From an uncultured Microthrixaceae bacterium (GTDB lineage: Bacteria; Actinomycetota; Acidimicrobiia; Acidimicrobiales; VFJN01), in NCBI GenBank assembly GCA_963717755.1, contig CAVQWY010000002.1, positions 682,393 through 746,392 of the forward strand: 64,000 nt of DNA. Direction: 5' to 3'. Below are positions 1 through 28,048 of this stretch, piece after piece; the first letter of the stretch is position 1; every line of letters begins with the position of its first letter. Made by a program: the position numbers and the translations under genes. The notes below the pieces were generated by a model. That model made no database searches and was not told the origin of the DNA. It saw nothing but the letters and a program-made list of their open reading frames with translations.

Positions 1-1104
1 CTCCAGGCGGCCATGGCCTCGGCGCACGGCATCGACGCCTTCTGCTACTACCACTACTGGTTCGGGGGCCGGCAGGTCCTGAACCGTCCGTTCGACGAGG
101 TGCGCCGCAGTGGCCGCCCCGGTCTGCCGTTCATGCTCTGCTGGGCCAACGAGAACTGGACGCGAGCGTGGGACGCCAGCGACCACGAGGTGCTGCTCGA
201 GCAGTCCTACGGACCCGACGAGCGCGCGGAGCACCTCGCCTACCTGGTCGACGCCTTCAGGGACGAGCGCTACCTGCGGGTGGACGACCGCCCGGTGTTC
301 GCGATCTACCGCGTCGGCGCGCTGCCGGAAGCGGCGGGGTTCGTGTCCGACCTCCGGAAGGCGGCGGTGGCGGCGGGCCTGGCCGACCCGTTCATCGTCA
401 AGTTCGACACGCACGGCAACTTCGAGGATCCGGCCGCCACCGGGTGCGACGTCGCGTCGCAGTTCTACCCCCACGGCTCCACGGAGCTCGGGCTCGAGGA
501 CAAGCGGGTTCCCCTCGGCGACCCGGGCAACCTGGTGATCCCGTACGACGACGTGGTGACCGCGCTGCTCGACGCGCCGGCGCCGTCGTGGACGCGCTAC
601 GAGTGCGTCACCCCGAGCTGGGACAACACGCCCCGCCGCGGCGACGGTCGGAGCTGGGTGGTGCACGGCTCCACCCCGGACGCCTACGAGGCGTGGCTGC
701 GAGCTGTCCTCGATCGGGCGCCGCAGCGCACCAGCGGCACGCCGATGGTGTTCATCAACGCGTGGAACGAGTGGGCCGAGGGCGCCCACCTCGAGCCCGA
801 CCAGCGGTGGGGCGCGGCGTACCTCCGGGCGACCGCTCGCGCCGCACTCGGCGGGGAGCCGGCCGAGATGTTCGGGCCGCTGCCGGCCCCGGACGCGGTG
901 CCGCCCACCGCGAGCTTCGAGGAGCTGTACGGCGACCTCTACGAGCAGTACATCCATCTCCAGCAGCGCCTGAGCGCCGTGGAGCTGTCGGCCCAACGGC
1001 GGCTCGACCACACGGTCGCCGCGCTCGAGGCGAGGCTCCGCGAGCAGCACGAGCTGGCCACGCGCCTGGCTGACCAGCTCGACCGGCGGCTCGGCTCCGA
1101 GTGA
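1..1104 (+). CDS. WbsX-like glycosyltransferase-family protein with C-terminal coiled coil (5' end cut by window edge)
   Basis: ORF 13..1104 stays open to base 1. Motifs GIDAFCYYHYWF, CWANENWTRAWD and NAWNEWAEG match the WbsX-type family as I recall it. The last ~60 aa are heptad-like (FEELYGDLYEQYIHLQQRL...). Confidence 0.7.
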   Translation, partial: LQAAMASAHGIDAFCYYHYWFGGRQVLNRPFDEVRRSGRPGLPFMLCWANENWTRAWDASDHEVLLEQSYGPDERAEHLAYLVDAFRDERYLRVDDRPVFAIYRVGALPEAAGFVSDLRKAAVAAGLADPFIVKFDTHGNFEDPAATGCDVASQFYPHGSTELGLEDKRVPLGDPGNLVIPYDDVVTALLDAPAPSWTRYECVTPSWDNTPRRGDGRSWVVHGSTPDAYEAWLRAVLDRAPQRTSGTPMVFINAWNEWAEGAHLEPDQRWGAAYLRATARAALGGEPAEMFGPLPAPDAVPPTASFEELYGDLYEQYIHLQQRLSAVELSAQRRLDHTVAALEARLREQHELATRLADQLDRRLGSE

Positions 1105-1176
1105 CCGGGGCGGTAACGTGACGCCCCGACCTGGCACTGCCCTCGGTTCCCCCACTCGGGCACGGTCCTCCTCGCC

Positions 1177-1992
1177 ATGACCTCCGTCCTCGAGCTGCGC
1201 CGCCACCGAGAGCTCTTCGCGAACCTGACGCTGCGCGAGCTGCGCGGCAAGTACAAGCGGTCGGCCCTGGGCTGGGGCTGGTCGATGGTGAACCCGCTCG
1301 CCCAGATGGCGATCTTCTCCCTCGTGTTCGGGCTCGTGCTCGACGTGCCCACGCCGCGGGGCGATCCCAGCGACCTCAAGATCTTCGCCTTCTTCCTCCT
1401 CTGCGCGCTCCTGCCCTGGACGTTCCTCGCCAACGGCCTCACCGGCGGGATGGGATCGCTCCTCGCCAGCGCCAACCTGGTGAAGAAGGTGTGGTTCCCG
1501 CGGGAGCTCCTCGTGGCCTCCAGCGTGGCCAGCTTCGGCGTGTCCTTCGCCATCGAGCTCGGGGTGCTGGTCGTCGCCCTCCTCATCGCAGGGAACATGG
1601 TGCTGCCGTGGATGCTGCCGGTGCTCGGGGTGGCGCTGATCCAAGCCGTCTTCGTGCTGGGCCTCGCGCTCGCGTTCTCCGTGTGGAACGTGTACTTCCG
1701 CGACCTCGAGTACCTCGTGGGCATCGGGCTGCAGTTCTGGTTCTACGCCACGCCGATCGTCTACCCGATCAGCCTGGTCGAGGATGAGCTCGGCAAGGAC
1801 TCCCTCGGCCTCGACCTCTACCGCCTCAACCCCATGACGCGGTTCGTGGAGGTGTACCGCGACCTCTTCTACTCGTTGCGGGGCCCCACCCTCGGCACGA
1901 TGGCCTACCTCGTGGGCTGTGCCATCGTCTCGTTGGCCATCGGTCGCATCGCCTTCGGCCGCCTCCAAGGCCGCCTCGCGGAGGAGCTGTGA
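1177..1992 (+). CDS. ABC-2 type polysaccharide/teichoic-acid exporter permease (Wzm/TagG-like)
   Basis: Intact 271-aa ORF. N-terminal LRELRGKYKRSALGWGWSMVNPL signature and multiple TM helices. Directly upstream of the cognate ATPase. Confidence 0.9.
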   Translation: MTSVLELRRHRELFANLTLRELRGKYKRSALGWGWSMVNPLAQMAIFSLVFGLVLDVPTPRGDPSDLKIFAFFLLCALLPWTFLANGLTGGMGSLLASANLVKKVWFPRELLVASSVASFGVSFAIELGVLVVALLIAGNMVLPWMLPVLGVALIQAVFVLGLALAFSVWNVYFRDLEYLVGIGLQFWFYATPIVYPISLVEDELGKDSLGLDLYRLNPMTRFVEVYRDLFYSLRGPTLGTMAYLVGCAIVSLAIGRIAFGRLQGRLAEEL

Positions 1993-2076
1993 TGATCGAC
2001 ACCGAAGCGGAGCTTCGGCGCCGAGCTGAGCGGAGCCGGCCTGCGGCCGGCACTGTGGTCGTCGGGGCTGCGCCCC

Positions 2077-3282
2077 ATGACTGAGCCCGCCATCTCGGTG
2101 GATCACCTCTCCAAGCGCTTCCGCCTCTACCACGACCGCAACCAGAGCCTGAAGGCGGCGGTGATGCGCGGGCGGCGCGCGAAGTACGAGGAGTTCTGGG
2201 CGCTACGGGACGTGTCGCTCGAGATCCAGGAAGGCGTCACGTACGGCTTCATCGGCACCAACGGCTCGGGCAAGAGCACGCTGCTCAAGTGCCTGGCCCG
2301 CATCCTCGAGCCCGACGAGGGGAGCACCCGGACGCGCGGCAAGGTGTCCGCGCTCCTCGAGCTCGGGGCCGGGTTCCACCCCGAGCTGTCCGGGCGCGAG
2401 AACGTCTTCCTCAACGGGTCGATCCTGGGCCTCTCGAAGGCCGAGCTCGATCGGCGCTTCGACGACATCGTCGAGTTCGCCGGGCTCGAGCGGTTCATCG
2501 ACACCCCGGTGAAGAACTACTCCTCGGGGATGTACGTGCGCCTCGGCTTCTCCGTGGCGATCAACGTCGATCCCGACATCCTTCTCGTCGACGAGGTGCT
2601 GGCCGTGGGCGACGAGGAGTTCCAGCGCCGTTGCAACGAGCGCTTCGCCGACCTCCGCGCCGAAGGTCGCACCATCGTCGTCGTGTCCCACTCGCTGGGA
2701 TCGGTGCAGGCGATCTGCGACGAGGTGGCGTGGCTCGACGCCGGGGTGCTCCGGGCCACCGGCGACGCGGGGGACGTCATCGACCAGTACATCACCGAGG
2801 TCCACCAGGGGCGCACCGCCGACGCCGACGGGACGCACGCCACCGGCGGTCGGTGGGGCTCCGGCGAGGTCACCCTCGACGAGATGGAGGTGCTCGGCGC
2901 CGACGGGGCGACGGCGGAGGTCGTCCGCACGGGCCAGCCCATCACCTTCCGGTTCCACTACACCGCCCGCTCGCCGGTGGCTCGCCCGGTGTTCACCCTC
3001 GCGATCCACACCCTCGAGGGCCTGGGCGTCACCAACCCGAACACGCGAGACGCCGGCCTCGTGCCCGATCGGATCACCGGCCAGGGCCACGTCGACCTGG
3101 TCGTGGACCCCCTTCCGCTCCTCCCCGGCACCTACGACCTGTCGGGCGCGATCACCGATGAGGCGGCCCTCCACATCTACGACCACCGCCACCGGTCCCT
3201 GCGCTTCGACGTGGAGGCGGGTTCGCCGCGGGAGAGCTGGGGTGGCCTGGTGACCATGAACGGGCGCTGGAAGGTGACGTAG
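2077..3282 (+). CDS. ABC exporter ATP-binding protein (Wzt/TagH-like) with C-terminal glycan-binding-type domain
   Basis: Walker A GTNGSGKST, signature YSSGM, Walker B LLVDEVLAVGD. About 150 extra C-terminal aa resemble Wzt C-terminal domains. Confidence 0.9.
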   Translation: MTEPAISVDHLSKRFRLYHDRNQSLKAAVMRGRRAKYEEFWALRDVSLEIQEGVTYGFIGTNGSGKSTLLKCLARILEPDEGSTRTRGKVSALLELGAGFHPELSGRENVFLNGSILGLSKAELDRRFDDIVEFAGLERFIDTPVKNYSSGMYVRLGFSVAINVDPDILLVDEVLAVGDEEFQRRCNERFADLRAEGRTIVVVSHSLGSVQAICDEVAWLDAGVLRATGDAGDVIDQYITEVHQGRTADADGTHATGGRWGSGEVTLDEMEVLGADGATAEVVRTGQPITFRFHYTARSPVARPVFTLAIHTLEGLGVTNPNTRDAGLVPDRITGQGHVDLVVDPLPLLPGTYDLSGAITDEAALHIYDHRHRSLRFDVEAGSPRESWGGLVTMNGRWKVT

Positions 3283-3290
3283 CGACGCGG

Positions 3291-3771
3291 TCAGGGCGCG
3301 AAGCGGACGCTCTGGACGACCCGATCGGCCGTCCGCACCAGCGGACCCCGCGTGCGATGGCTGCCCACGACCACGTACAGGCAGAACGGTCGCCCCTGCA
3401 CCTGGAAGAACTCCTGCGAGCCCGCCATCCCCGCGATCGCCCGCTGCATGGCCTGCGGCGAGAACATCGCGTCGGTGAGGCGCGGCACGCCATCCCGACG
3501 GAACAGCGCGGTGGCCGCCGCCTCCGGTTCGTGCTCGAGCAGGCAGATCAAGATGTCGGAGCCGCTCATCTGCTCCACCGCCCCCGAGCCGTAGTCGCCG
3601 CGCTCGGTGGGCAGGGCGAAGCTGGCGGCGTGGAGCACCACGCCGAAGCCTCCCGCGTCGTCGCCCGCCTCAGCGCGCGGGGGAGGCACCGGACTGCCCG
3701 GCCGCCCGGATCTGGCCGTCCCAACCCGCCGGCAGGTCGACGGAGAGGCCGCCGTCCGCGAGCGCCGTCAC
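3291..3771 (-). pseudogene. Conserved hypothetical protein, one frameshift near 3680 as sequenced
   Basis: GTG at 3771 overlaps the upstream stop (GTGA). It reads TALADGGLSVDLPAGWDGQIRAAG, then a stop. The sequence continues in the frame of ORF 3291..3689 (GGFGVVLHAASFALPTERGDYGSGAV...). Confidence 0.5.
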
Positions 3772-4569
3772 GGCCCCTCGTCCCCGACGTGCGACGGGTG
3801 CGGGGTGGGGTAGAGGCTCGGATCGCCGGGCTCGATGCCGGCGGCGCGCAGCTCCTGGTCCACTCGATCCGCCCGGTCCTGGCCGCCCATGCGCGTGAGC
3901 GACCGGGCGGGAGGCGAGGGCTGCACGGCGGCGTCGGCCTCCGCCTTGCCGAGGAGGTCGATGACCTGCTCCCACGAGGACCCGGCGCCCTCGCCGACGA
4001 CCCGGCCGGAGGGCCCGTCGACGAGGATGAAGTACGGCGACACCGGCACGCGGTAGTCGTCCCACGCCTCGCTCGACATGACCGTGGTGACGCCGGCGGG
4101 CGCCAGGTCGGCGACCGCCGCCGGCGACTCGGCGTCGGGGCCGTTCGTGATCACGACCACCCGGGTGGACGGGTCGGCCAGGTGGCGGGTGGGCTCGTGG
4201 CCGAGGGCCTCCCAGAACGTGCCACAGGTGCCACAGCCCGTGGACAGGAACGCGAGCAGCGTGGGGTGGTCGACCCCCACCACGGCCACGTGGGCCGCGC
4301 CGCCTTGCGGCAGGCGGCCGGTGAGGTCGGCGGCGTCGCCCATCGGACCGTCGTCGCGCGGGTCGCGGTACGCCGTCGGCGGTGCGCATCGGGGCGTGCT
4401 GCGACACGGCCGCCGGTCGCCGCGGCGCGGTCGTGGAGCCGTCCTCGAGGTTGACGCCGAGGTCGTGGAGGGCCCGCAGGATCTCGGCGTGCGAGCGGAG
4501 CAACCCGACGACCAGGACCGCGAGGAGGGCCATGGCGAGGGCGAGCGCCACGACGACGGCGGCCATCAT
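3768..4569 (-). pseudogene. Membrane-anchored thioredoxin-like (TlpA/MauD-like) protein, C-G-T-C motif, one frameshift near 4385
   Basis: The N-terminal TM helix MMAAVVVALALAMALLAVLVVGLL is in one frame. The thioredoxin-fold part (LLAFLSTGCGTCGTFWE ... VPVSPYFILVD) is in ORF 3768..4343. The start lies 7 nt after the stop of the Cys-rich gene. Confidence 0.65.
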
Positions 4570-4576
4570 GGGTGCA

Positions 4577-5905
4577 TCACCCGATGAACCAGCGCTGGCC
4601 GAACGTGACGGTGATGTAGGTCGGGTCGTCAAGCGAACGCCGGAGGTACCAGCGCCCCTCGGACGGGCGGTAGACGCCGATGCCGACGACGCCGAGGGCG
4701 AACCAGTCGCCCACGATGGGCAGGTCGCCCTTCTTCCCGAAGGTGACCACCCGCGCGGTGGAGCCGGACGTCAGGGTGTTGTTGAGGTGCCACTGGCCGC
4801 TGCGGAAGATGCCGATCCCGTCGACGCCGTCGCCGTTCCAGTCGCCCACCACGGGGAGGTCGCCACTGAGCTGGCCGTAGCGCACCACCCGCGTCGCCAC
4901 CGGATGGGCGACGTTGTCGCTCAGGTGCCAGTAGCCGCCGGTGCGGAAGATCCCCGGCGCGTCGGTGCCGTCGCCGTTCCAGTCGCCGGCCACCGGCCGG
5001 TCGCCGCTCGCCACCCCCCAGGGTGGGGTCACGATGGCCGTGGCGGCGGGGCCGACCTGGTTGGAGAGGTGCCACACGCCTTGGCGGAAGATGCCCACGC
5101 CCTTGGCGCCGTCGCCGTTCCAGTCGCCCACCACCGGGCGGTCGCCGGCCTGGAGCCCGTACTTGAACACGGGCACGGGGTTGAGGTTGGCGCTCTGCCT
5201 GAGCGTCCACGTCCCGGTGCGGTTGTCGTAGAACCCGATCCCCGTCTTGTCGACGCCGTCCCAGTCGCCCGCCACCGGGTAGATCGCGGGCGCCGCCTGC
5301 AGGCACGGACGGTTGTGGCCGCGCGTGTTGTTGTCGGTGCGCACGGCGCTGGACGAGCACGTCGGTTCCACCAGCCACGGGGGGGTGCAGGTGACGACGC
5401 GGCACTGGATCGGGCCGATGCAGGCGCGCTGGTTGTTGCAGTTGCCGTAGCGGAACGCGGTGCACCCGGCCTTGCGGTGGTCACAGCGCCCGTTGCCGCA
5501 GCCGCACGAGGTGCCGCTGCACGCGCCCGTGCAGATGCCGGAGCCGCCGCAGCCGCACGAGCCGCACGAGCGATGGCAGTCCATGTAGTACCGGGCGGCG
5601 CCGCCGCAGAAGCTGGAGCCGTCGGCCTTCCACCAGCCGCCGGTGAGGGCGCCGGCGGGGCAGGCGTTCACGCCGTACAGCGCGCAGCAGAACTCCGTGT
5701 AGCCGTCGCAGCACAGCGATCCGCACGGGCAGGCCTTGCCCAGGCAGCTGCACACGGCCGCGTACGCGCTCTGCGGGCGGAGCAGCAGGTCGCCGGGCGC
5801 CGTCACGAGGGCGCTGCCCACCAGCGCCGAGCGAGCGATGAAGCTGCGGCGGTCGAGGCGGTTGGCGACGGCATCGGTCGCCCGGGACAGGACGCTGCGG
5901 GGCAC
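4577..5905 (-). CDS. Tat-signal secreted protein: 26-Cys domain plus five FG-GAP/VCBS-like repeats
   Basis: Intact 442 aa. Twin-arginine signal LDRRSFIARSALVGSALV...AYA. Residues 51-201 (5303..5755) hold 26 Cys. Residues ~208-440 (4586..5284) are 5 repeats of P[VI][VA]GDW[ND]GDG..G[IV][FY]R.G.W.L. Confidence 0.85.
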   Translation of the reverse strand: MPRSVLSRATDAVANRLDRRSFIARSALVGSALVTAPGDLLLRPQSAYAAVCSCLGKACPCGSLCCDGYTEFCCALYGVNACPAGALTGGWWKADGSSFCGGAARYYMDCHRSCGSCGCGGSGICTGACSGTSCGCGNGRCDHRKAGCTAFRYGNCNNQRACIGPIQCRVVTCTPPWLVEPTCSSSAVRTDNNTRGHNRPCLQAAPAIYPVAGDWDGVDKTGIGFYDNRTGTWTLRQSANLNPVPVFKYGLQAGDRPVVGDWNGDGAKGVGIFRQGVWHLSNQVGPAATAIVTPPWGVASGDRPVAGDWNGDGTDAPGIFRTGGYWHLSDNVAHPVATRVVRYGQLSGDLPVVGDWNGDGVDGIGIFRSGQWHLNNTLTSGSTARVVTFGKKGDLPIVGDWFALGVVGIGVYRPSEGRWYLRRSLDDPTYITVTFGQRWFIG

Positions 5906-5979
5906 GGCAGGGATGACCTTAGTGGTCGCCCACCACCCGCCGTGATCGCCGCGACCGGGGGGTCGGTAGCCTCGGCGCC

Positions 5980-7341
5980 ATGGCGCTGCGCTTCGTGATC
6001 ATCGGCGGGGGACCAGCGGGGAACACCGCCGCCACCCACGCGGCCCGGCTCGGCGCCGAGGTCACGGTGATCGAGCAGGACGTCGTGGGCGGCGCCGCCC
6101 ACCTGTGGGACTGCATCCCGTCCAAGGCGATGATCGCCACCGGTGGGGCATTGGCGGCCGTGGGCCGGTCGCCGGAGATGGGGCTCACCGCCGCCGCCGC
6201 CGAGGTCGACCCGGACGCCCTCAAGGCCCGCATCGAGGCGATCGAGCAGAAGCTCGAGCACGGCGTTCGGCGCCTGCTCGACAGCCAGGGGGTGCGCATC
6301 CTGCGGGGGCGCGGCCGCCTGGTGGGGCCCCACGCCGTCGTCGCCGACACCATCGACGGGCCCGTGGAGGTGGACGCCGACGTCATCCTCCTCGCCACCG
6401 GCAGCCGTCCCCGGATCCCAGACTGGGCGGACGTCGACGGTCAGCGCGTGCTGTCCACCCGCGACGCGTATCCGCCGGCCGTGTGGCCCGCGCACCTCGT
6501 GGTGATCGGCTCCGGGGTCACCGGCGTCGAGTTCGTGCACATGTTCAGCTCGCTGGGCAGCGACGTCACCTTGATCGTGTCCCGGCAGCAGGTGCTCCCG
6601 CAGAAGGACTCCGAGGTGGCCGCGGCGCTGGAGGACGAGCTGCTGAGCCGCGGGGTGCGGCTGCTCAAGGGTGCCCGCGCGGTGGGCATCGATCAGCAGG
6701 ACGGTGGCGTCTCGGTCCGCTGCGACGACGGGCGCGTCGCCCAGGGGAGCCACGCGCTGCTCGCCATCGGCTCCATCCCCAACAGCGAGGGCCTCGAGCT
6801 GAGCGCCGCCGGCGTGGAGGCCGATGCCGGCGGCTACGTGCCGGTGGACGAGAGCTGCCGCACCAACGTCGCCCACGTCTACGCGGCCGGCGACCTGTCG
6901 GGGAAGCTCCCGCTGTCGTCGGTCGCCGCGATGCAGGGCCGCCGGATCGCCGAGCACGCGATGGGCGTCCAGTCCCGCAGCAGCCGGCAGCTCGACTACG
7001 ACAAGGCGGCGTCCGCCATCTTCACCGTCCCGGAGATCGCCGACGTCGGGTTGGCGGAGGCCGATGCCTTCGCCGAAGGGCGCAAGGTGCGGGTCACCAA
7101 GGTGCCCTTCTCCGCCTCGCCGAAGGCCCTCATCGAGAGCCACAGCCGCGGCTTCGTGAAGATCGTCAGCGACCCGGCCACCGGGGTGGTGCTGGGCGGG
7201 TCGATCGTCGGGCGGCACGCCGCCGAGCTGATCTCCGTGATCGCCGTGGCCGTCACCAACGGCCTTCGCGTGGCCGACATCGTCGACAGCCTCCTCGTGC
7301 ACCCCTCGCTGTCCGAGGCCCTGGCCGAGGCGGCCGAGTGA
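5980..7341 (+). CDS. lpdA: Flavoprotein disulfide reductase / NAD(P)H-quinone dehydrogenase (LpdA-like)
   Basis: Intact 453 aa. FAD motif IIGGGPAGNTAA. Second Rossmann motif VIGSGVTGVEF. C-terminal dimerisation-domain pattern. No canonical CxxxxC pair, as in mycobacterial LpdA (from memory). Confidence 0.8.
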   Translation: MALRFVIIGGGPAGNTAATHAARLGAEVTVIEQDVVGGAAHLWDCIPSKAMIATGGALAAVGRSPEMGLTAAAAEVDPDALKARIEAIEQKLEHGVRRLLDSQGVRILRGRGRLVGPHAVVADTIDGPVEVDADVILLATGSRPRIPDWADVDGQRVLSTRDAYPPAVWPAHLVVIGSGVTGVEFVHMFSSLGSDVTLIVSRQQVLPQKDSEVAAALEDELLSRGVRLLKGARAVGIDQQDGGVSVRCDDGRVAQGSHALLAIGSIPNSEGLELSAAGVEADAGGYVPVDESCRTNVAHVYAAGDLSGKLPLSSVAAMQGRRIAEHAMGVQSRSSRQLDYDKAASAIFTVPEIADVGLAEADAFAEGRKVRVTKVPFSASPKALIESHSRGFVKIVSDPATGVVLGGSIVGRHAAELISVIAVAVTNGLRVADIVDSLLVHPSLSEALAEAAE

Positions 7342-7348
7342 CGCGCCT

Positions 7349-7864
7349 GTGCCGGCGCTGACCGGGCCCGCGCTGGTCGCCGCCGCGCTGCTCGCGCTGG
7401 CCGGTGCGCAGAAGGTCGTCGACCCGACGATGACGGTGGGCGCCCTCCGGGCGCTGCGGCTGCCGTCGTCAGCGACCCTGGTGCGGGCGGGCTCGACGCT
7501 CGAGCTGGCGCTCGGCGTGGGGGCCATCGCCGTCGGCGGCGCCGTGCTGTGGTCGGCGGTCGCCGTGAGCTACGTGCTGTTCGCCGCCTTCGTGGTCGCC
7601 GCGCTCCGGAAGGGCACGATGATCGGCTCGTGCGGCTGCTTCGGGCGCGAGGACACGCCGCCGCACTGGAGCCACGTCGTGCTCAACCTCGCGCTGGCGG
7701 CCTTGGCGGCGGCCAACGCGGTCCGCAGTCCCGCCGCGCCGCTCGACGCCCTCGTCGACCACCCCGGTGCGGGCGCGGCCGTCGTCGCGCTGGCCGCCTT
7801 GTCGCTGTACCTGCTCCACGCCGCCTTCGTGGAGCTCCCGCGGACGCTGGCCGCTACTCGATGA
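7349..7864 (+). CDS. MauE/DoxX-family redox-associated membrane protein
   Basis: 171 aa, 4 predicted TM helices. SCGCFG motif typical of the MauE family as I recall it. Confidence 0.65.
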   Translation: MPALTGPALVAAALLALAGAQKVVDPTMTVGALRALRLPSSATLVRAGSTLELALGVGAIAVGGAVLWSAVAVSYVLFAAFVVAALRKGTMIGSCGCFGREDTPPHWSHVVLNLALAALAAANAVRSPAAPLDALVDHPGAGAAVVALAALSLYLLHAAFVELPRTLAATR

Positions 7865-9608
7865 CGACGATGACGTCGCCGGAGCCCACCGACTGGCCAG
7901 GCGTCACCTTGATCTCCTTCACCGTGCCCGCCTTGTCGGCGGCGATGTTGTTCTCCATCTTCATGGCCTCGAGCACGCACACGGGCTGACCGGCCTCGAC
8001 GGCCTGGCCGACCTCCACGAGGATCTTCACGATCGTGCCCTGCATCGGCACGGTGACCTTGCCGCTGCCGACCGCACCGGCTCCGGCGACGGCGGCTCGT
8101 CGCGGGCGGGGGCTGGCGCCGGACCCGGCCACCACGGCCAGCGGCACGTCGGGGACCCACATCCGCACGCTGAAGCGCTTGCCGTTGACCTCCACGTCGA
8201 CGTCCCGCTGCACCTTGGGTTCCTCGTCGTCATCCGTGGGGACGGCCGGGGTGGCGGAGACGCCGGTGAGGTCGAGCGTGTCCTCCACCCACTTGGTGGA
8301 GTGCTCGGCGTTCTGGAAGTCGGCGTGGCGCAGGATGGCGAGGTCGGCCGGGACGGTGGTGGCGATGCCCTCGATGCGCAGCTCCTCGAGCGCGCGGATC
8401 ATGCGACCGATGGCCGTGGCGCGGTCATCGCCCCAGACGATGAGCTTGCCGACGAGGTTGTCGTAGTACTGGCTGACCTCGTCGCCGCTCTCGTAGCCGC
8501 CGTCCCAACGCACGCCGAAGCCCTGCGGCGGCACCAGCTCGGTGATCGTGCCGGGGGAGGGGAGGAACCGGCCCTCGGCGGGGTCCTCGGCGTTGATGCG
8601 GACCTCGATCGCCCAGCCCCGCAGGTCGATGTCGTCCTGCGTGAACGAGAGCGGCTCGCCGGAGGCCACGCGGATCTGCTCGCGGACGAGGTCGATGCCC
8701 GACACCAGCTCGGTGACGGGGTGCTCGACCTGGAGGCGGGTGTTCATCTCGAGGAACCAGAACTCGCCGTCCTGGTAGAGGAACTCGACGGTGCCGGCGT
8801 TGTAGTAGCCGCACGCCTTGGCGACCTTCACGGCCGCCTCACCCATGGCCTGGCGGGTCTCGGCCGGGAAGGCGGGCGCCGGGCTCTCCTCGATCAGCTT
8901 CTGGTGACGGCGCTGGGCTGAGCAGTCGCGCTCGCCCACCCACACGACGCTGCCGTGGGTGTCCCCGATCACCTGCATCTCCACGTGGCGCGGCCAGGTG
9001 AGGTAGCGCTCGACGTAGCACTCGGCCCGCCCGAAGCCCTTGAGGGCCTCTGACTGCGCGGACTCGAGGGCGGCGTGGGCCTCGTCAGCGCTGGTGACGA
9101 CGCGCATGCCGCGCCCGCCACCGCCGTAGGCGGCCTTGATGGCGACCGGCCAGCCGAACTCCTCGCCGAACGCCACGACCTCGTCGCCGCTGGTCAGGAA
9201 CTCGGTGGTGCCGGGCACGCCCTGCACGCCCGCCTCCTGCGCGGCGATGCGGCTCGACACCTTGTCGCCCATGACCTCGATGGCCTCGGGCGGCGGGCCG
9301 ATGAACGTGACGCCCCGCTCGGTGATGGCGCGGGCGAAGTCGGTGTTCTCGGAGAAGAAGCCGTAGCCGGGGTGTACGCCGTCGGCGCCGGACTGCTCGA
9401 TCACCTCGAGGATGCGCTCGGTGTTGAGGTAGCTCTCGGCCGCCGTCTGACCGCCCAGCGCGTAGGCCTCATCGGCCAGCCGGACGTGCAGCGCCTCCCG
9501 ATCGAGCTCGGAGTACACCGCCACCGTGGCGATGCCCATCTCCTTGCAGGCACGAATGACACGGACAGCGATCTCGCCCCGGTTGGCGATGAGGACCTTG
9601 GTGAGCAC
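7854..9608 (-). CDS. accA: Acetyl/propionyl-CoA carboxylase alpha subunit (biotin carboxylase + BCCP)
   Basis: Intact 584 aa. N-terminus KVLIANRGEIAVRVIRAC. ATP-grasp core. C-terminal biotinyl motif LEAMKMEN. Confidence 0.95.
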   Translation of the reverse strand: MLTKVLIANRGEIAVRVIRACKEMGIATVAVYSELDREALHVRLADEAYALGGQTAAESYLNTERILEVIEQSGADGVHPGYGFFSENTDFARAITERGVTFIGPPPEAIEVMGDKVSSRIAAQEAGVQGVPGTTEFLTSGDEVVAFGEEFGWPVAIKAAYGGGGRGMRVVTSADEAHAALESAQSEALKGFGRAECYVERYLTWPRHVEMQVIGDTHGSVVWVGERDCSAQRRHQKLIEESPAPAFPAETRQAMGEAAVKVAKACGYYNAGTVEFLYQDGEFWFLEMNTRLQVEHPVTELVSGIDLVREQIRVASGEPLSFTQDDIDLRGWAIEVRINAEDPAEGRFLPSPGTITELVPPQGFGVRWDGGYESGDEVSQYYDNLVGKLIVWGDDRATAIGRMIRALEELRIEGIATTVPADLAILRHADFQNAEHSTKWVEDTLDLTGVSATPAVPTDDDEEPKVQRDVDVEVNGKRFSVRMWVPDVPLAVVAGSGASPRPRRAAVAGAGAVGSGKVTVPMQGTIVKILVEVGQAVEAGQPVCVLEAMKMENNIAADKAGTVKEIKVTPGQSVGSGDVIVVIE

Positions 9609-26062: not shown

Positions 26063-27186
26063 CCGCCACGGTCGGTCTGAACCTCCTGTGGCTCGTGCCC
26101 GGCGCCGTCGGCGGGAGCGAGCAGTCGACGGTGGCCACGCTGCGGGCCCTCCGGGACCTCGCCCCGCCCGACCTCGACCTGCGCCTGTTCGTGCTGGAGC
26201 CGTTCGGCCTCGCCCACCCCGATGTCGTGGCCGCGTTCCCCACCGAGGTGCTGCCCGTGTCGGGTCGCTCGCGGATCGTGCGGGTCGGCGGCGAGGCGTC
26301 GTGGCTGTCGGCCCGCACGCGCCGGTTGGACCTCGTGCACCACGCCGGCGGCACCGCCCCACCGCGGGGGAGGGCGCCATACGTCCTCACCGTGCACGAC
26401 CTCCAGCCGCTCGAGCGCCAAGCCACCCATGGCCGGGGCAAGCGGGCCTACCTCCGCTCCGTCCTTCCGCGATCCGTCCGGCGCGCCCGATCGGTGGCTG
26501 TGCCCAGTGACTTCGTGCGCGAGTCGGTGGTCTCCCGCTTCGACGTCGATCCGGCTCGGGTCGTCACGATCCCGCACGGCGTGGCCCGACCGACGACCGT
26601 CGTCAGCTCCGAAGCCGTGGTGCGCGCCCGCTACCAGCTCGACGGGCCGGTGGTGCTCTACCCGGCCATCACCTACCCGCACAAGAACCACGTCACGCTG
26701 GTCGAGGCGTTCGCCCGAGTGCGCGAGCACCACCCCGACGCGGTGCTCGTCCTGTCAGGAGCCGAGGGGGCCTGTGAGGGGGCGGTGCTGGAGCAGGTCG
26801 ATCGGCTCGGGCTCCAGCGCAGCGTCCGCCGGGTGGGTCGCATCTCGGACGCCGACGTGGCCGGCCTCTACGCGGCGGCGACGGTGGTGGCGGTGCCCTC
26901 GACCTACGAGGGGTTCGGGCTGCCCGCCGCCGAGGCCATGGCGGCGGGAGTGGCCCTGGTGGCCGCCGATGCCACTGCCCTGCCAGAGGTCGTGGGCGAC
27001 GCCGGGCTCCTCGTCGAAGCCACCGATCCGCAGGCTTGGGCCGACGCCATCGGCCGGCTCCTGGGTGACCAGGGGGAGCGCGATCGGCTGGTCGCACGGG
27101 GCCGTGATCGGGTGCTGCGGTACTCGTGGCGGGCCAACGCGGAGGCGTTCGCCGACCTCTACCGGGCGGCGGTGGCCACCGGCTGA
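26059..27186 (+). CDS. GT-B family 1/4 glycosyltransferase
   Basis: The ATGA overlaps the upstream stop. Intact ~375 aa. YPHKNH and PSTYEGFGLPAAEAMAAG motifs. Confidence 0.85.
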   Translation: MTATVGLNLLWLVPGAVGGSEQSTVATLRALRDLAPPDLDLRLFVLEPFGLAHPDVVAAFPTEVLPVSGRSRIVRVGGEASWLSARTRRLDLVHHAGGTAPPRGRAPYVLTVHDLQPLERQATHGRGKRAYLRSVLPRSVRRARSVAVPSDFVRESVVSRFDVDPARVVTIPHGVARPTTVVSSEAVVRARYQLDGPVVLYPAITYPHKNHVTLVEAFARVREHHPDAVLVLSGAEGACEGAVLEQVDRLGLQRSVRRVGRISDADVAGLYAAATVVAVPSTYEGFGLPAAEAMAAGVALVAADATALPEVVGDAGLLVEATDPQAWADAIGRLLGDQGERDRLVARGRDRVLRYSWRANAEAFADLYRAAVATG

Positions 27187-27241
27187 GCCCGTCGGGGCCG
27201 AATGGGTCCGGCCGCGCGGCTCTTGTAGGGTGAGCGACCCT

Positions 27242-28048
27242 ATGGGTAAGGCATCGTCGTCGAAGAAGGTGGCCCGCGCGGCGCGAGCCGGCGGCCGGGT
27301 GTCCTCCGGGCAGCCCCGCGGCCTCCTGTTCCCCAGCGTCCTCACGCTGATCGTGGTGCTGGGGGTGGCCTTGGTCGTGTACGCCCGGAACGACCGCAGC
27401 AACGAGGATCTCGGCGGGGTCCCGCAGCTCGGCGACCACATCCACCAGGCGATCGCCATCAACATCTGCGGCGTCGAGCAGGCGGTCGTGCCCGAGTGGG
27501 AGCCGAGCCCGATCGGCCTCCACACCCACGGTGACGGCGTCATGCACATCCACCCGTTCTCGCAGCTCGGCGTGGGCACCAACGCCACCCTCGGCCGCTT
27601 CATCCAGAGCGCGCGCGACGAGGGCAACCTGGACTTCTCACTGTCGGACACCAAGCTCGAGTACCTCGACGAGACCTACGAAGAGGGCGAGAGCAAGTGC
27701 GAGGGGGTCGAGGATCCCGAGCTGCGCCTGGCGTACTGGGACGACGTGCAGGACGCGGCGTCCGTGCCTGAGGTGACCACCGGCGGCTTCTCCGACAAGC
27801 GCCTCACGAAGAACGGCTCCGGGGTCACGATCTTCTTCGGCGACCCCGACGCAGACATCCCGAAGCCGGCGAGCGCTCCGCAGCTCGAGGCTCTGGGTGC
27901 CGTCGACCAGGACCCGAGCGCGACCACCTCGACGACCTCGGGCGAGACCACCACCACCGCGCCCGGTGCGACCACCACGACCGCGCCAGGGGCCACGACC
28001 TCGACGACGGCCGCGGGCGACACCACGACGACGACCGCGGCGCCCTAG
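27242..28048 (+). CDS. Membrane-anchored hypothetical protein with Thr/Pro-rich tail
   Basis: MGKASSSKKVARAARAGG, one TM helix, a globular part (HIHQAIAINICG...HTHGDGVMHIHPF) and a TTTAPGATTTT low-complexity end. Confidence 0.6.
   Translation: MGKASSSKKVARAARAGGRVSSGQPRGLLFPSVLTLIVVLGVALVVYARNDRSNEDLGGVPQLGDHIHQAIAINICGVEQAVVPEWEPSPIGLHTHGDGVMHIHPFSQLGVGTNATLGRFIQSARDEGNLDFSLSDTKLEYLDETYEEGESKCEGVEDPELRLAYWDDVQDAASVPEVTTGGFSDKRLTKNGSGVTIFFGDPDADIPKPASAPQLEALGAVDQDPSATTSTTSGETTTTAPGATTTTAPGATTSTTAAGDTTTTTAAP

Follow-up and report, generated by a model that had tools for sequence, protein, structure and literature searches.

Gene content of the locus

We analysed a 64,000-nt stretch of DNA from an uncultured Microthrixaceae bacterium (contig CAVQWY010000002.1 of assembly GCA_963717755.1, positions 682,393–746,392), which is called the window here. 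Near its start lies a gene for a Cys-rich protein with a twin-arginine leader motif (termed the client), accompanied by genes for homologues of MauD and MauE, two helper proteins of methylamine dehydrogenase (MADH). The G+C content of the window is ~72%, and its nearest relatives are metagenome-assembled genomes (MAGs) of Acidimicrobiia.

The client open reading frame (ORF; 4577–5905, minus strand) encodes 442 aa. It consists of a leader (residues 1–49, at 5759–5905), a Cys-rich head domain (residues 50–204, at 5294–5758) and five FG-GAP/VCBS-like repeats (residues 205–442, at 4580–5293). All 26 Cys residues (26/26) fall within residues 52–201. An earlier, sequence-only reading of this DNA had described the twin-arginine motif, the 26 Cys and the five GDW repeats, and all three were confirmed in the ORF.

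On the same strand, the client stop is followed after 7 nt by the ATG (4569) of a gene for a membrane-anchored thioredoxin-like, MauD-like protein (3768–4569, CGTC at 4224–4235). Its TGA overlaps the GTG start of a third gene (GTGA, 3768–3771), which encodes a conserved protein of ~160 aa ('DUF160', 3291–3771). Both of these genes are frame-broken in the window (see below). On the plus strand, an LpdA-like flavoprotein gene (5980–7341) is followed after 7 nt by a gene for a MauE-family membrane protein (7349–7864, CGC at 7631–7639). A promoter and terminator scan was uninformative.

The leader of the client reads RLDRRSFIARSALVGSALVTAP...SAYA. It comprises a long n-region, the motif DRRSFIA, a hydrophobic stretch and AYA before the mature end, and R19, R20 and F22 are invariant among relatives. 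With the twin-arginine signal model TIGR01409, the window protein scored 16.5 bits against a cut-off of 16.7, and a relative from a Euzebyaceae MAG (L062) scored 19.4. In a search of PDB sequences, the full-length family profile aligned with the twin-arginine translocation (Tat) signal of NosZ. Cleavage would be expected after AYA, and export of the client would be expected to depend on Tat.

A widespread Cys-rich head domain

With the head-only profile, 1.84 billion representatives yielded 478 clusters (50% identity) at E≤1e-3; 192 clusters passed E≤1e-30. The named taxa of the family are Acidimicrobiia plus one Euzebyaceae locus. More than 100 full-length relatives of the client were found, all of them listed as 'hypothetical'. 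All source names met with in the head family were generic: some members were called 'hypothetical protein', and others were labelled after their C-terminal LGFP or DUF4214 module. Neither Pfam nor NCBIfam had a match for the head, and a literature search found no description of the family. Judged by these searches, the head is a new, widespread and undescribed domain, in agreement with the earlier suggestion that the architecture had not been described.

Among 134 diverse members, the invariant positions were N80, C82, P83, G90, W91, W92, R105, F151, R152, Y153 and G154, that is, the motifs N80-x-C82-P83, G90-W91-W92, R105 and F151-R152-Y153-G154. The invariance of GWW, R and FRYG hints at a specific site for binding or catalysis. 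Sixteen of the head Cys residues are ≥95% conserved across the family. The variable ones are lost jointly in two groups, {52, 54, 61, 66} and {114, 117, 119, 125, 129, 162}; joint loss in groups of four and six is as expected for disulfide partners. In some relatives, a Gly/Cys-rich insert with ~6 Cys is deleted wholesale. The head Cys residues would accordingly fit disulfides rather than metal ligands. The AlphaFold2 model of the head (106 sequences) was confident, with a predicted local distance difference test (pLDDT) score of 86.6 and a predicted template modelling score (pTM) of 0.82.

Exchangeable C-terminal modules

The five GDW(N/D/F) repeats of the window protein have a period of ~47 aa and are of the type GDxPVxGDWNGDGxDxxGxFR..W.L. 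Against FG-GAP_3 (PF13517) they scored 19.1 bits, under the cut-off of 26.9, while relatives reached E=6e-6 to 1e-15. By these scores, the window repeats are best called FG-GAP-like, and membership in FG-GAP_3 appears to hold at the family level only. The repeats had no match among PDB sequences.

What follows the head varies between members. In a census of 90 longer relatives of the client, LGFP repeats were the most frequent module (31/90), followed by CWB2, SLH and FG-GAP_3 (4/90 each), DUF4214 (3/90), and a ricin lectin and a Tectonin module (1/90 each). LGFP, SLH and CWB2 are wall-binding modules. Two further members (P0058 and P0371) carry MauE fused N-terminally to the head. The Euzebyaceae MAG has a stand-alone head of 219 aa (709–1368 of L062). 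The repeats are best read as one of several swappable anchoring or binding modules and not as an obligatory partner of the head. In the window protein they are probably a wall- or glycan-binding anchor module, which would tether the client to the cell surface.

The same Euzebyaceae locus has a separate downstream gene of 758 aa (L062:2770–5046) with GDWDGDG repeats behind a TolB-like region. This pair of genes may be a split version of the fused head-repeat architecture.

Conserved gene linkage

The genes around the head gene were counted in 63 loci carrying the head. A thioredoxin-like gene was found in 59/63 loci, mauE in 56/63, the gene for the 160-aa protein in 52/63 and a gene for a membrane protein of 200 aa (MauF-like, see below) in 37/63, with most missing partners falling at contig ends. 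The partner genes almost always lie on the same strand as the head gene, mostly in one operon and in some cases with 4-nt overlaps. The genes usually run mauE, head gene, thioredoxin-like gene, membrane protein gene and 160-aa protein gene; in other genomes, mauE usually lies directly upstream of the client gene. In a divergent member of the LGFP/CWB2 type, the MauF-like and 160-aa genes immediately precede the head gene, and the 160-aa gene overlaps it by 4 nt. One MAG bin contains two client paralogues with 39% identity, and a separate mauE lies upstream of each.

Clustering of the neighbouring ORFs at ~60 loci gave no further conserved partner. In particular, the conserved neighbours at these loci include no di-haem peroxidase, MauG, MauB, flavoprotein or radical-SAM enzyme. 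The linkage between the head and its partners is robust and strongly conserved. A link to MauE and thioredoxin-like genes in other genomes, which the sequence-only reading had left to be checked, is thus present in most loci and extends to the two MauE fusions.

Partner proteins

The MauE protein matched PF07291 with E=1.7e-14 (54.6 bits, cut-off 27) and has its active-site motif SCGCFG at residues 94–99. The MauE-type protein beyond the LpdA-like flavoprotein had thus been recognised correctly from the letters. MauE was first proposed as a general DsbB-like oxidase in 2026; it replaces DsbB in Escherichia coli in a CXC-dependent manner, its CXC is typically followed by F-G, and a thioredoxin-fold partner such as MauD has been proposed (bioRxiv 10.64898/2026.03.05.709764). 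By analogy, the MauE of the window is predicted to be a DsbB-like, disulfide-generating oxidase.

For the thioredoxin-like protein and the 200-aa membrane protein, family hidden Markov models (HMMs) were run against 7879 ORFs that included the Paracoccus mau cluster. The thioredoxin-like HMM matched Paracoccus MauD (E=1.3e-6) as the sole outsider. In both this family and MauD, the N-terminus is hydrophobic and uncharged, and G-L-(L/M)-R-x-x-x-x-(I/L)-L-(R/H) comes next. The MauD equivalog model TIGR02661 gave the thioredoxin-like protein 18.5 bits against a cut-off of 188.6, yet this was its best NCBIfam match. On the strength of these matches, it is a MauD homologue and not an equivalog.

The HMM of the 200-aa membrane protein matched Paracoccus MauF, again as the sole outsider (E=6e-22; 9e-8 in BLASTP). 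One of the 200-aa proteins reached Pfam DsbD_2 (25.5 bits against 24.9); apart from that, they had no Pfam or NCBIfam match. A CcdA-type electron carrier was considered for the MauF-like protein and rejected because most copies have no Cys. The Paracoccus reference cluster has the order mauR-F-B-E-D-A-C-J-G-M-N, of which mauF-B-E-D-A was seen in the contig used here (L084), and the canonical order is likewise given in PMC4543880. The sequence-only reading had likened the locus to MauA maturation, with MauE and MauD as the helpers. At the level of the system, this analogy holds and is stronger than it was stated, with a MauF homologue also present at the 37 loci.

The 160-aa protein lacks a signal peptide, and neither Pfam nor NCBIfam matched it. 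Its AlphaFold2 model is of high quality (pLDDT 91.2), and Foldseek found nothing significant for it; the matches (best E=0.02) were the alpha/beta-sandwich binding proteins of the Tsi3, MucB, Apa, PsbP and LpqN-like kind. As this likeness is weak, no function was assigned. Our guess is that the protein could be a cytoplasmic escort for the Tat precursor.

Frame breaks in two partner genes

The thioredoxin-like gene of the window is split in two frames. Its ATG at 4569 opens a hydrophobic N-terminus, MMAAVVVALALAMALLAVLVVGLLRSHAEIL. An additional C within a CCC run (4360–4362, minus strand) puts the anchor part that starts there out of frame with the CGTC part (ORF 3768–4343). Alignment to a close relative (L083) placed one extra window base in this gene, within CGACCCGCG. 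In the third gene, the GTG opens VTALADGGLSVDLPAGWDGQI... and a stop follows after 33 codons. The conserved remainder (ORF 3291–3689) sits in another frame; the break here is an additional C within a C5 run (3679–3683, minus strand). The thioredoxin-like gene 7 nt downstream and the GTGA-coupled further gene, both named by the sequence-only reading, hence hold up as regards start, CGTC motif and overlap; neither is one open frame as sequenced.

Close relatives (77–94% protein identity) have the same gene order with both genes intact, encoding a thioredoxin-like protein of 265–266 aa (L081 and L083) and a third protein of 164 aa. Removing one C per site in the window gave proteins of 266 and 159 aa that are collinear with those of the relatives. 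A near-identical, independent contig (L085; ENA ERZ25039476, contig_49014) aligned to window positions 1–9579 with 97% identity and 73 gap openings in 9.6 kb. These gaps fragment its lpdA and accA3 genes, and the contig has the look of a long-read assembly left unpolished, from almost the same organism. It is without the extra C at 4360–4362, yet has the extra C at 3679–3683.

Since they are single extra bases in homopolymers, both breaks are probable assembly errors. The second may still be a real mutation, because its extra C is common to L085.

The listed ORF of 320 aa at 3670–4632 (minus strand) is an artefact that joins the true MauD-like anchor to an out-of-frame read-through rich in Arg and Pro. 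The same read-through was called as a 299-aa product on L085 by the gene caller.

Comparison of the head with the MADH light chain

The sequence-only reading had suggested that the head could be a domain like MauA, the MADH light chain, joined to propeller-like repeats in one chain. For the comparison, the MauA reference sequence was identical to PDB 2BBK chain L, and the MauA set comprised 120 family members. The light-chain family PF02975 (Me-amine-dh_L) did not match the window protein at E≤0.1 or 22 relatives at E≤5. Among PDB sequences searched up to E≤10, neither the full-length nor the head-only family profile found a light chain of MADH or aralkylamine dehydrogenase (AADH), and nothing matched apart from the NosZ Tat signal and repeat noise. 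The MauA HMM ranked no member of the head family above noise. A Foldseek search of the head model against the PDB (350,542 chains) gave nine matches in all, none of them significant. The AADH light chain was the sixth of these nine (E=9.3, probability 0.02, TM-score 0.25/0.33).

A local alignment of head and MauA was obtained with hhalign, with a score of 20–21 (20.3, P=0.014), P ~0.01 and a probability of 3–4%. It pairs CCDGYTEFCC..G.N.CPPGT..AGWWKADGS.FC...RYYMDC..CG with DG..C.CC.GG...CPPGT..S.SWVASC....YLIAYRDCCG. None of 200 column-shuffled MauA profiles (0/200) reached the score, which exceeded the best of them by only 0.3 (mean 13.6, sd 2.6, maximum 20.0). In this marginal and unreliable alignment, the invariant W92 faces betaTrp57, and betaTrp108 faces the variable A161; in the light chain, these two betaTrp residues make up tryptophan tryptophylquinone (TTQ). 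C134 is co-lost with C148, at odds with the MauA-type pairing that the alignment implies.

The leaders of MauA proteins scored a median of 19.5 bits against the leader HMM of the head family. Most of 12 control Tat signals scored below 17, and NosZ scored 23.7. The likeness of the MauA leaders is suggestive and not specific because the NosZ signal scores as well.

Hence, the proposed MauA-like nature of the head was not borne out, with hhalign marginal and the other comparisons without a significant match. The idea of a light chain fused to its heavy chain is contradicted because the head occurs alone or with LGFP, CWB2, SLH, DUF4214 or ricin-lectin modules. No window ORF has two CxxCH motifs, so the statement that the window has no gene like mauG, which encodes the di-haem TTQ synthase, was correct. 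A genuine, if distant, kinship between the head and the MADH light chain is doubtful, though a chance worth keeping in mind; the head may be a very distant relative that is free of TTQ. A quinone cofactor in the head is very unlikely.

Interpretation of the locus

Across its loci, a conserved domain family is linked to homologues of MauD, MauE and MauF. The region is probably a self-contained oxidative-folding operon of the MauE/MauD/MauF type, serving a surface-displayed, disulfide-dense client, and not a new methylamine dehydrogenase. The precursor with its long twin-arginine leader would be exported by Tat, as the motif suggests. Outside the membrane, the anchored MauD homologue with its CxxC would introduce or shuffle up to 13 disulfides in the 150-residue head. 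The DsbB-like MauE would re-oxidise the MauD homologue via its CGC site and pass the electrons to the quinone pool. In most relatives, the Cys-less MauF homologue would take part too, and so would the ~160-aa signal-less protein, possibly by escorting the precursor in the cytoplasm. The direction of the electron flow and the role of the 160-aa protein are what we infer. The folded head would then be held at the cell surface by its C-terminal module, which is the five FG-GAP-like repeats in the window and an LGFP, SLH, CWB2, DUF4214 or lectin domain in relatives.

Several points weigh against this explanation. The whole analysis is computational. The mauE gene of the window is outside the client operon, on the other strand and behind lpdA, and a MauF-like gene was found neither in the 64-kb window nor on the contigs of its closest relatives. 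The thioredoxin-like and DUF160 genes are broken as sequenced; if the breaks are real, the module would be decaying in this strain. The orientation of the thioredoxin-like protein is uncertain because no positive charges precede its membrane helix, and Paracoccus MauD likewise has none there. A protein that must form disulfides outside the cytoplasm is an unusual substrate for Tat, although MauA combines both features. On one Microthrixaceae contig of 5 Mb (L001), the ~10 kb to each side of the head gene contain no partner of the MauE, MauD-like, MauF-like or 160-aa type; this head gene may be a stand-alone paralogue served in trans. The linkage may also partly reflect housekeeping because MauE is now seen as a generalist oxidase.

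A rival that we regard as unlikely is that the MauE/MauD-like pair is a general disulfide-forming system that merely lies beside an abundant Cys-rich surface protein. It would fit a widespread, generalist DsbB substitute, the separate transcription unit of mauE behind lpdA in the window and its closest relatives, and the L001 head gene without partners. The linkage at the level of the operon in most of the 63 loci, including 4-nt overlaps, argues against it. So do the MauE-head fusions, the two diverged client paralogues in one MAG with a mauE each, and the co-conservation of the MauF-like and DUF160 proteins, neither of which is known as a general folding factor. The other rivals give the head a cofactor. 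Its Cys residues could bind metal, making it an Fe-S or Cu/Zn-thiolate protein that is loaded in the cytoplasm and exported folded by Tat. The extreme Cys density (26 in 150 residues) speaks for this, and Tat signals commonly mark exported proteins with cofactors. Nevertheless, we consider metal binding very improbable: no ferredoxin-type or other metal-cluster family was detected with Pfam and NCBIfam, a disulfide-generating oxidase and a CxxC thioredoxin-fold protein are encoded in tight linkage with the gene, the variable Cys vanish in even-numbered groups and the insert with ~6 Cys can be deleted wholly.

Somewhat less improbable than metal binding, though still quite unlikely, is a MauA-type tryptophylquinone light chain fused to a propeller 'heavy chain', which would make the client a single-chain quinoprotein like an amine dehydrogenase. 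The mauE, mauD and mauF homologues are co-located around the gene as around mauA (the MauF-like gene at the 37 loci and not in the window), the long Tat-type leader resembles MauA leaders, and the hhalign pattern DG..C.CC.G...CPPGT...W...C...YxDC..CG and the rank of the AADH light chain in Foldseek point the same way. On the other side stand the missing matches to PF02975, PDB sequences and the MauA HMM, the low Foldseek and hhalign probabilities, the variable Ala opposite betaTrp108 and the co-loss of C134 and C148. Moreover, the conserved Cys sets are all even-numbered and leave no obvious spare residue for a Cys-Trp cross-link, the repeats can be missing or replaced by wall-binding modules, and MauG is lacking in the window and, together with MauB, a flavoprotein and a radical-SAM enzyme, among the conserved neighbours. 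A much-diverged fold of the light-chain type, with a different protein-derived cofactor at the invariant GWW/FRYG site and independent of MauG, appears as improbable as the metal protein. If it were true, the family would represent wall-displayed quinoproteins of a new class in Acidimicrobiia, and MauD, MauE and MauF would be the ancestral core of light-chain maturation.

Relation to known systems

To our knowledge, the sole known role of MauD, MauE and MauF since the 1990s had been to assist methylamine dehydrogenase in a poorly understood way. An oxidative-folding operon as proposed here would give them a second, unrelated-looking client that is conserved across a bacterial class and has up to 13 predicted disulfides in 150 residues. 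It would make the roles of MauD and MauF testable, as well as the question of how a Tat-exported protein gains so many disulfides. It would also define a new, widespread surface-protein domain in Acidimicrobiia, which are abundant in soil and water and little studied.

The locus shares with the Paracoccus cluster mauFBEDACJGMN a long Tat-type leader on a small, disulfide-dense exported polypeptide, and adjoining homologues of MauE, MauD (with the same anchor pattern) and MauF. In contrast to that cluster, the client is not recognisably MauA and has 16–26 Cys instead of 12. The MauB heavy chain, amicyanin, MauG, MauJ, MauM and MauN are all missing, the MauF-like protein is shorter and usually without Cys, an extra 160-aa protein is present and the client carries wall-binding modules. 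The hosts are Acidimicrobiia and not Proteobacteria.

As in the DsbB-DsbA and VKOR-DsbA/MdbA systems, a membrane oxidase and a thioredoxin-fold carrier are predicted to make the disulfides of exported proteins. Unlike in those systems, a single client shares the operon with the pair and in some cases is fused to it, MauF-like and DUF160 proteins are present as well, and the client has a Tat leader instead of a Sec leader. The joining of a head to interchangeable wall-binding modules is known from wall-anchored proteins with LGFP, SLH or CWB2 modules. Here, the head is a new Cys-rich domain, and the anchor in the window consists of FG-GAP/VCBS-like repeats.

Neighbouring genes

The LpdA-like protein matched the NAD(P)H-quinone dehydrogenase model NF005883 best (451 bits, cut-off 479). 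Its CxxxxC site reads AAHLWDCIPSK, which means that the first redox-active Cys is replaced; we take this to be the Mycobacterium tuberculosis Rv3303c type. The arrangement of lpdA and then mauE with a 7-nt gap is confined to the lineage of the window. The LpdA-like gene was considered as a member of the system and rejected. It is adjacent in only ~7 of ~60 other loci, and because of this and of the conserved accA3-birA synteny it probably lies outside the system.

Three genes on the plus strand (13–3282), immediately downstream of the operon and convergent with it, end 8 nt from its stop. They encode a WbsX-like glycosyl enzyme, an ABC-2 permease and a Wzt-type ATPase with a Wzt_C domain, and together they make up a wall- or glycopolymer-export set.

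A second Cys-rich candidate, the ORF at 26222–28048 (plus strand, 608 aa, 23 Cys), was rejected as a wrong-frame artefact at the 5' end: its first half, rich in Arg, Cys and Trp, is read in the wrong frame. The C-terminal part alone, from MGKASSSKK... onwards, looks like a real secreted or anchored protein.

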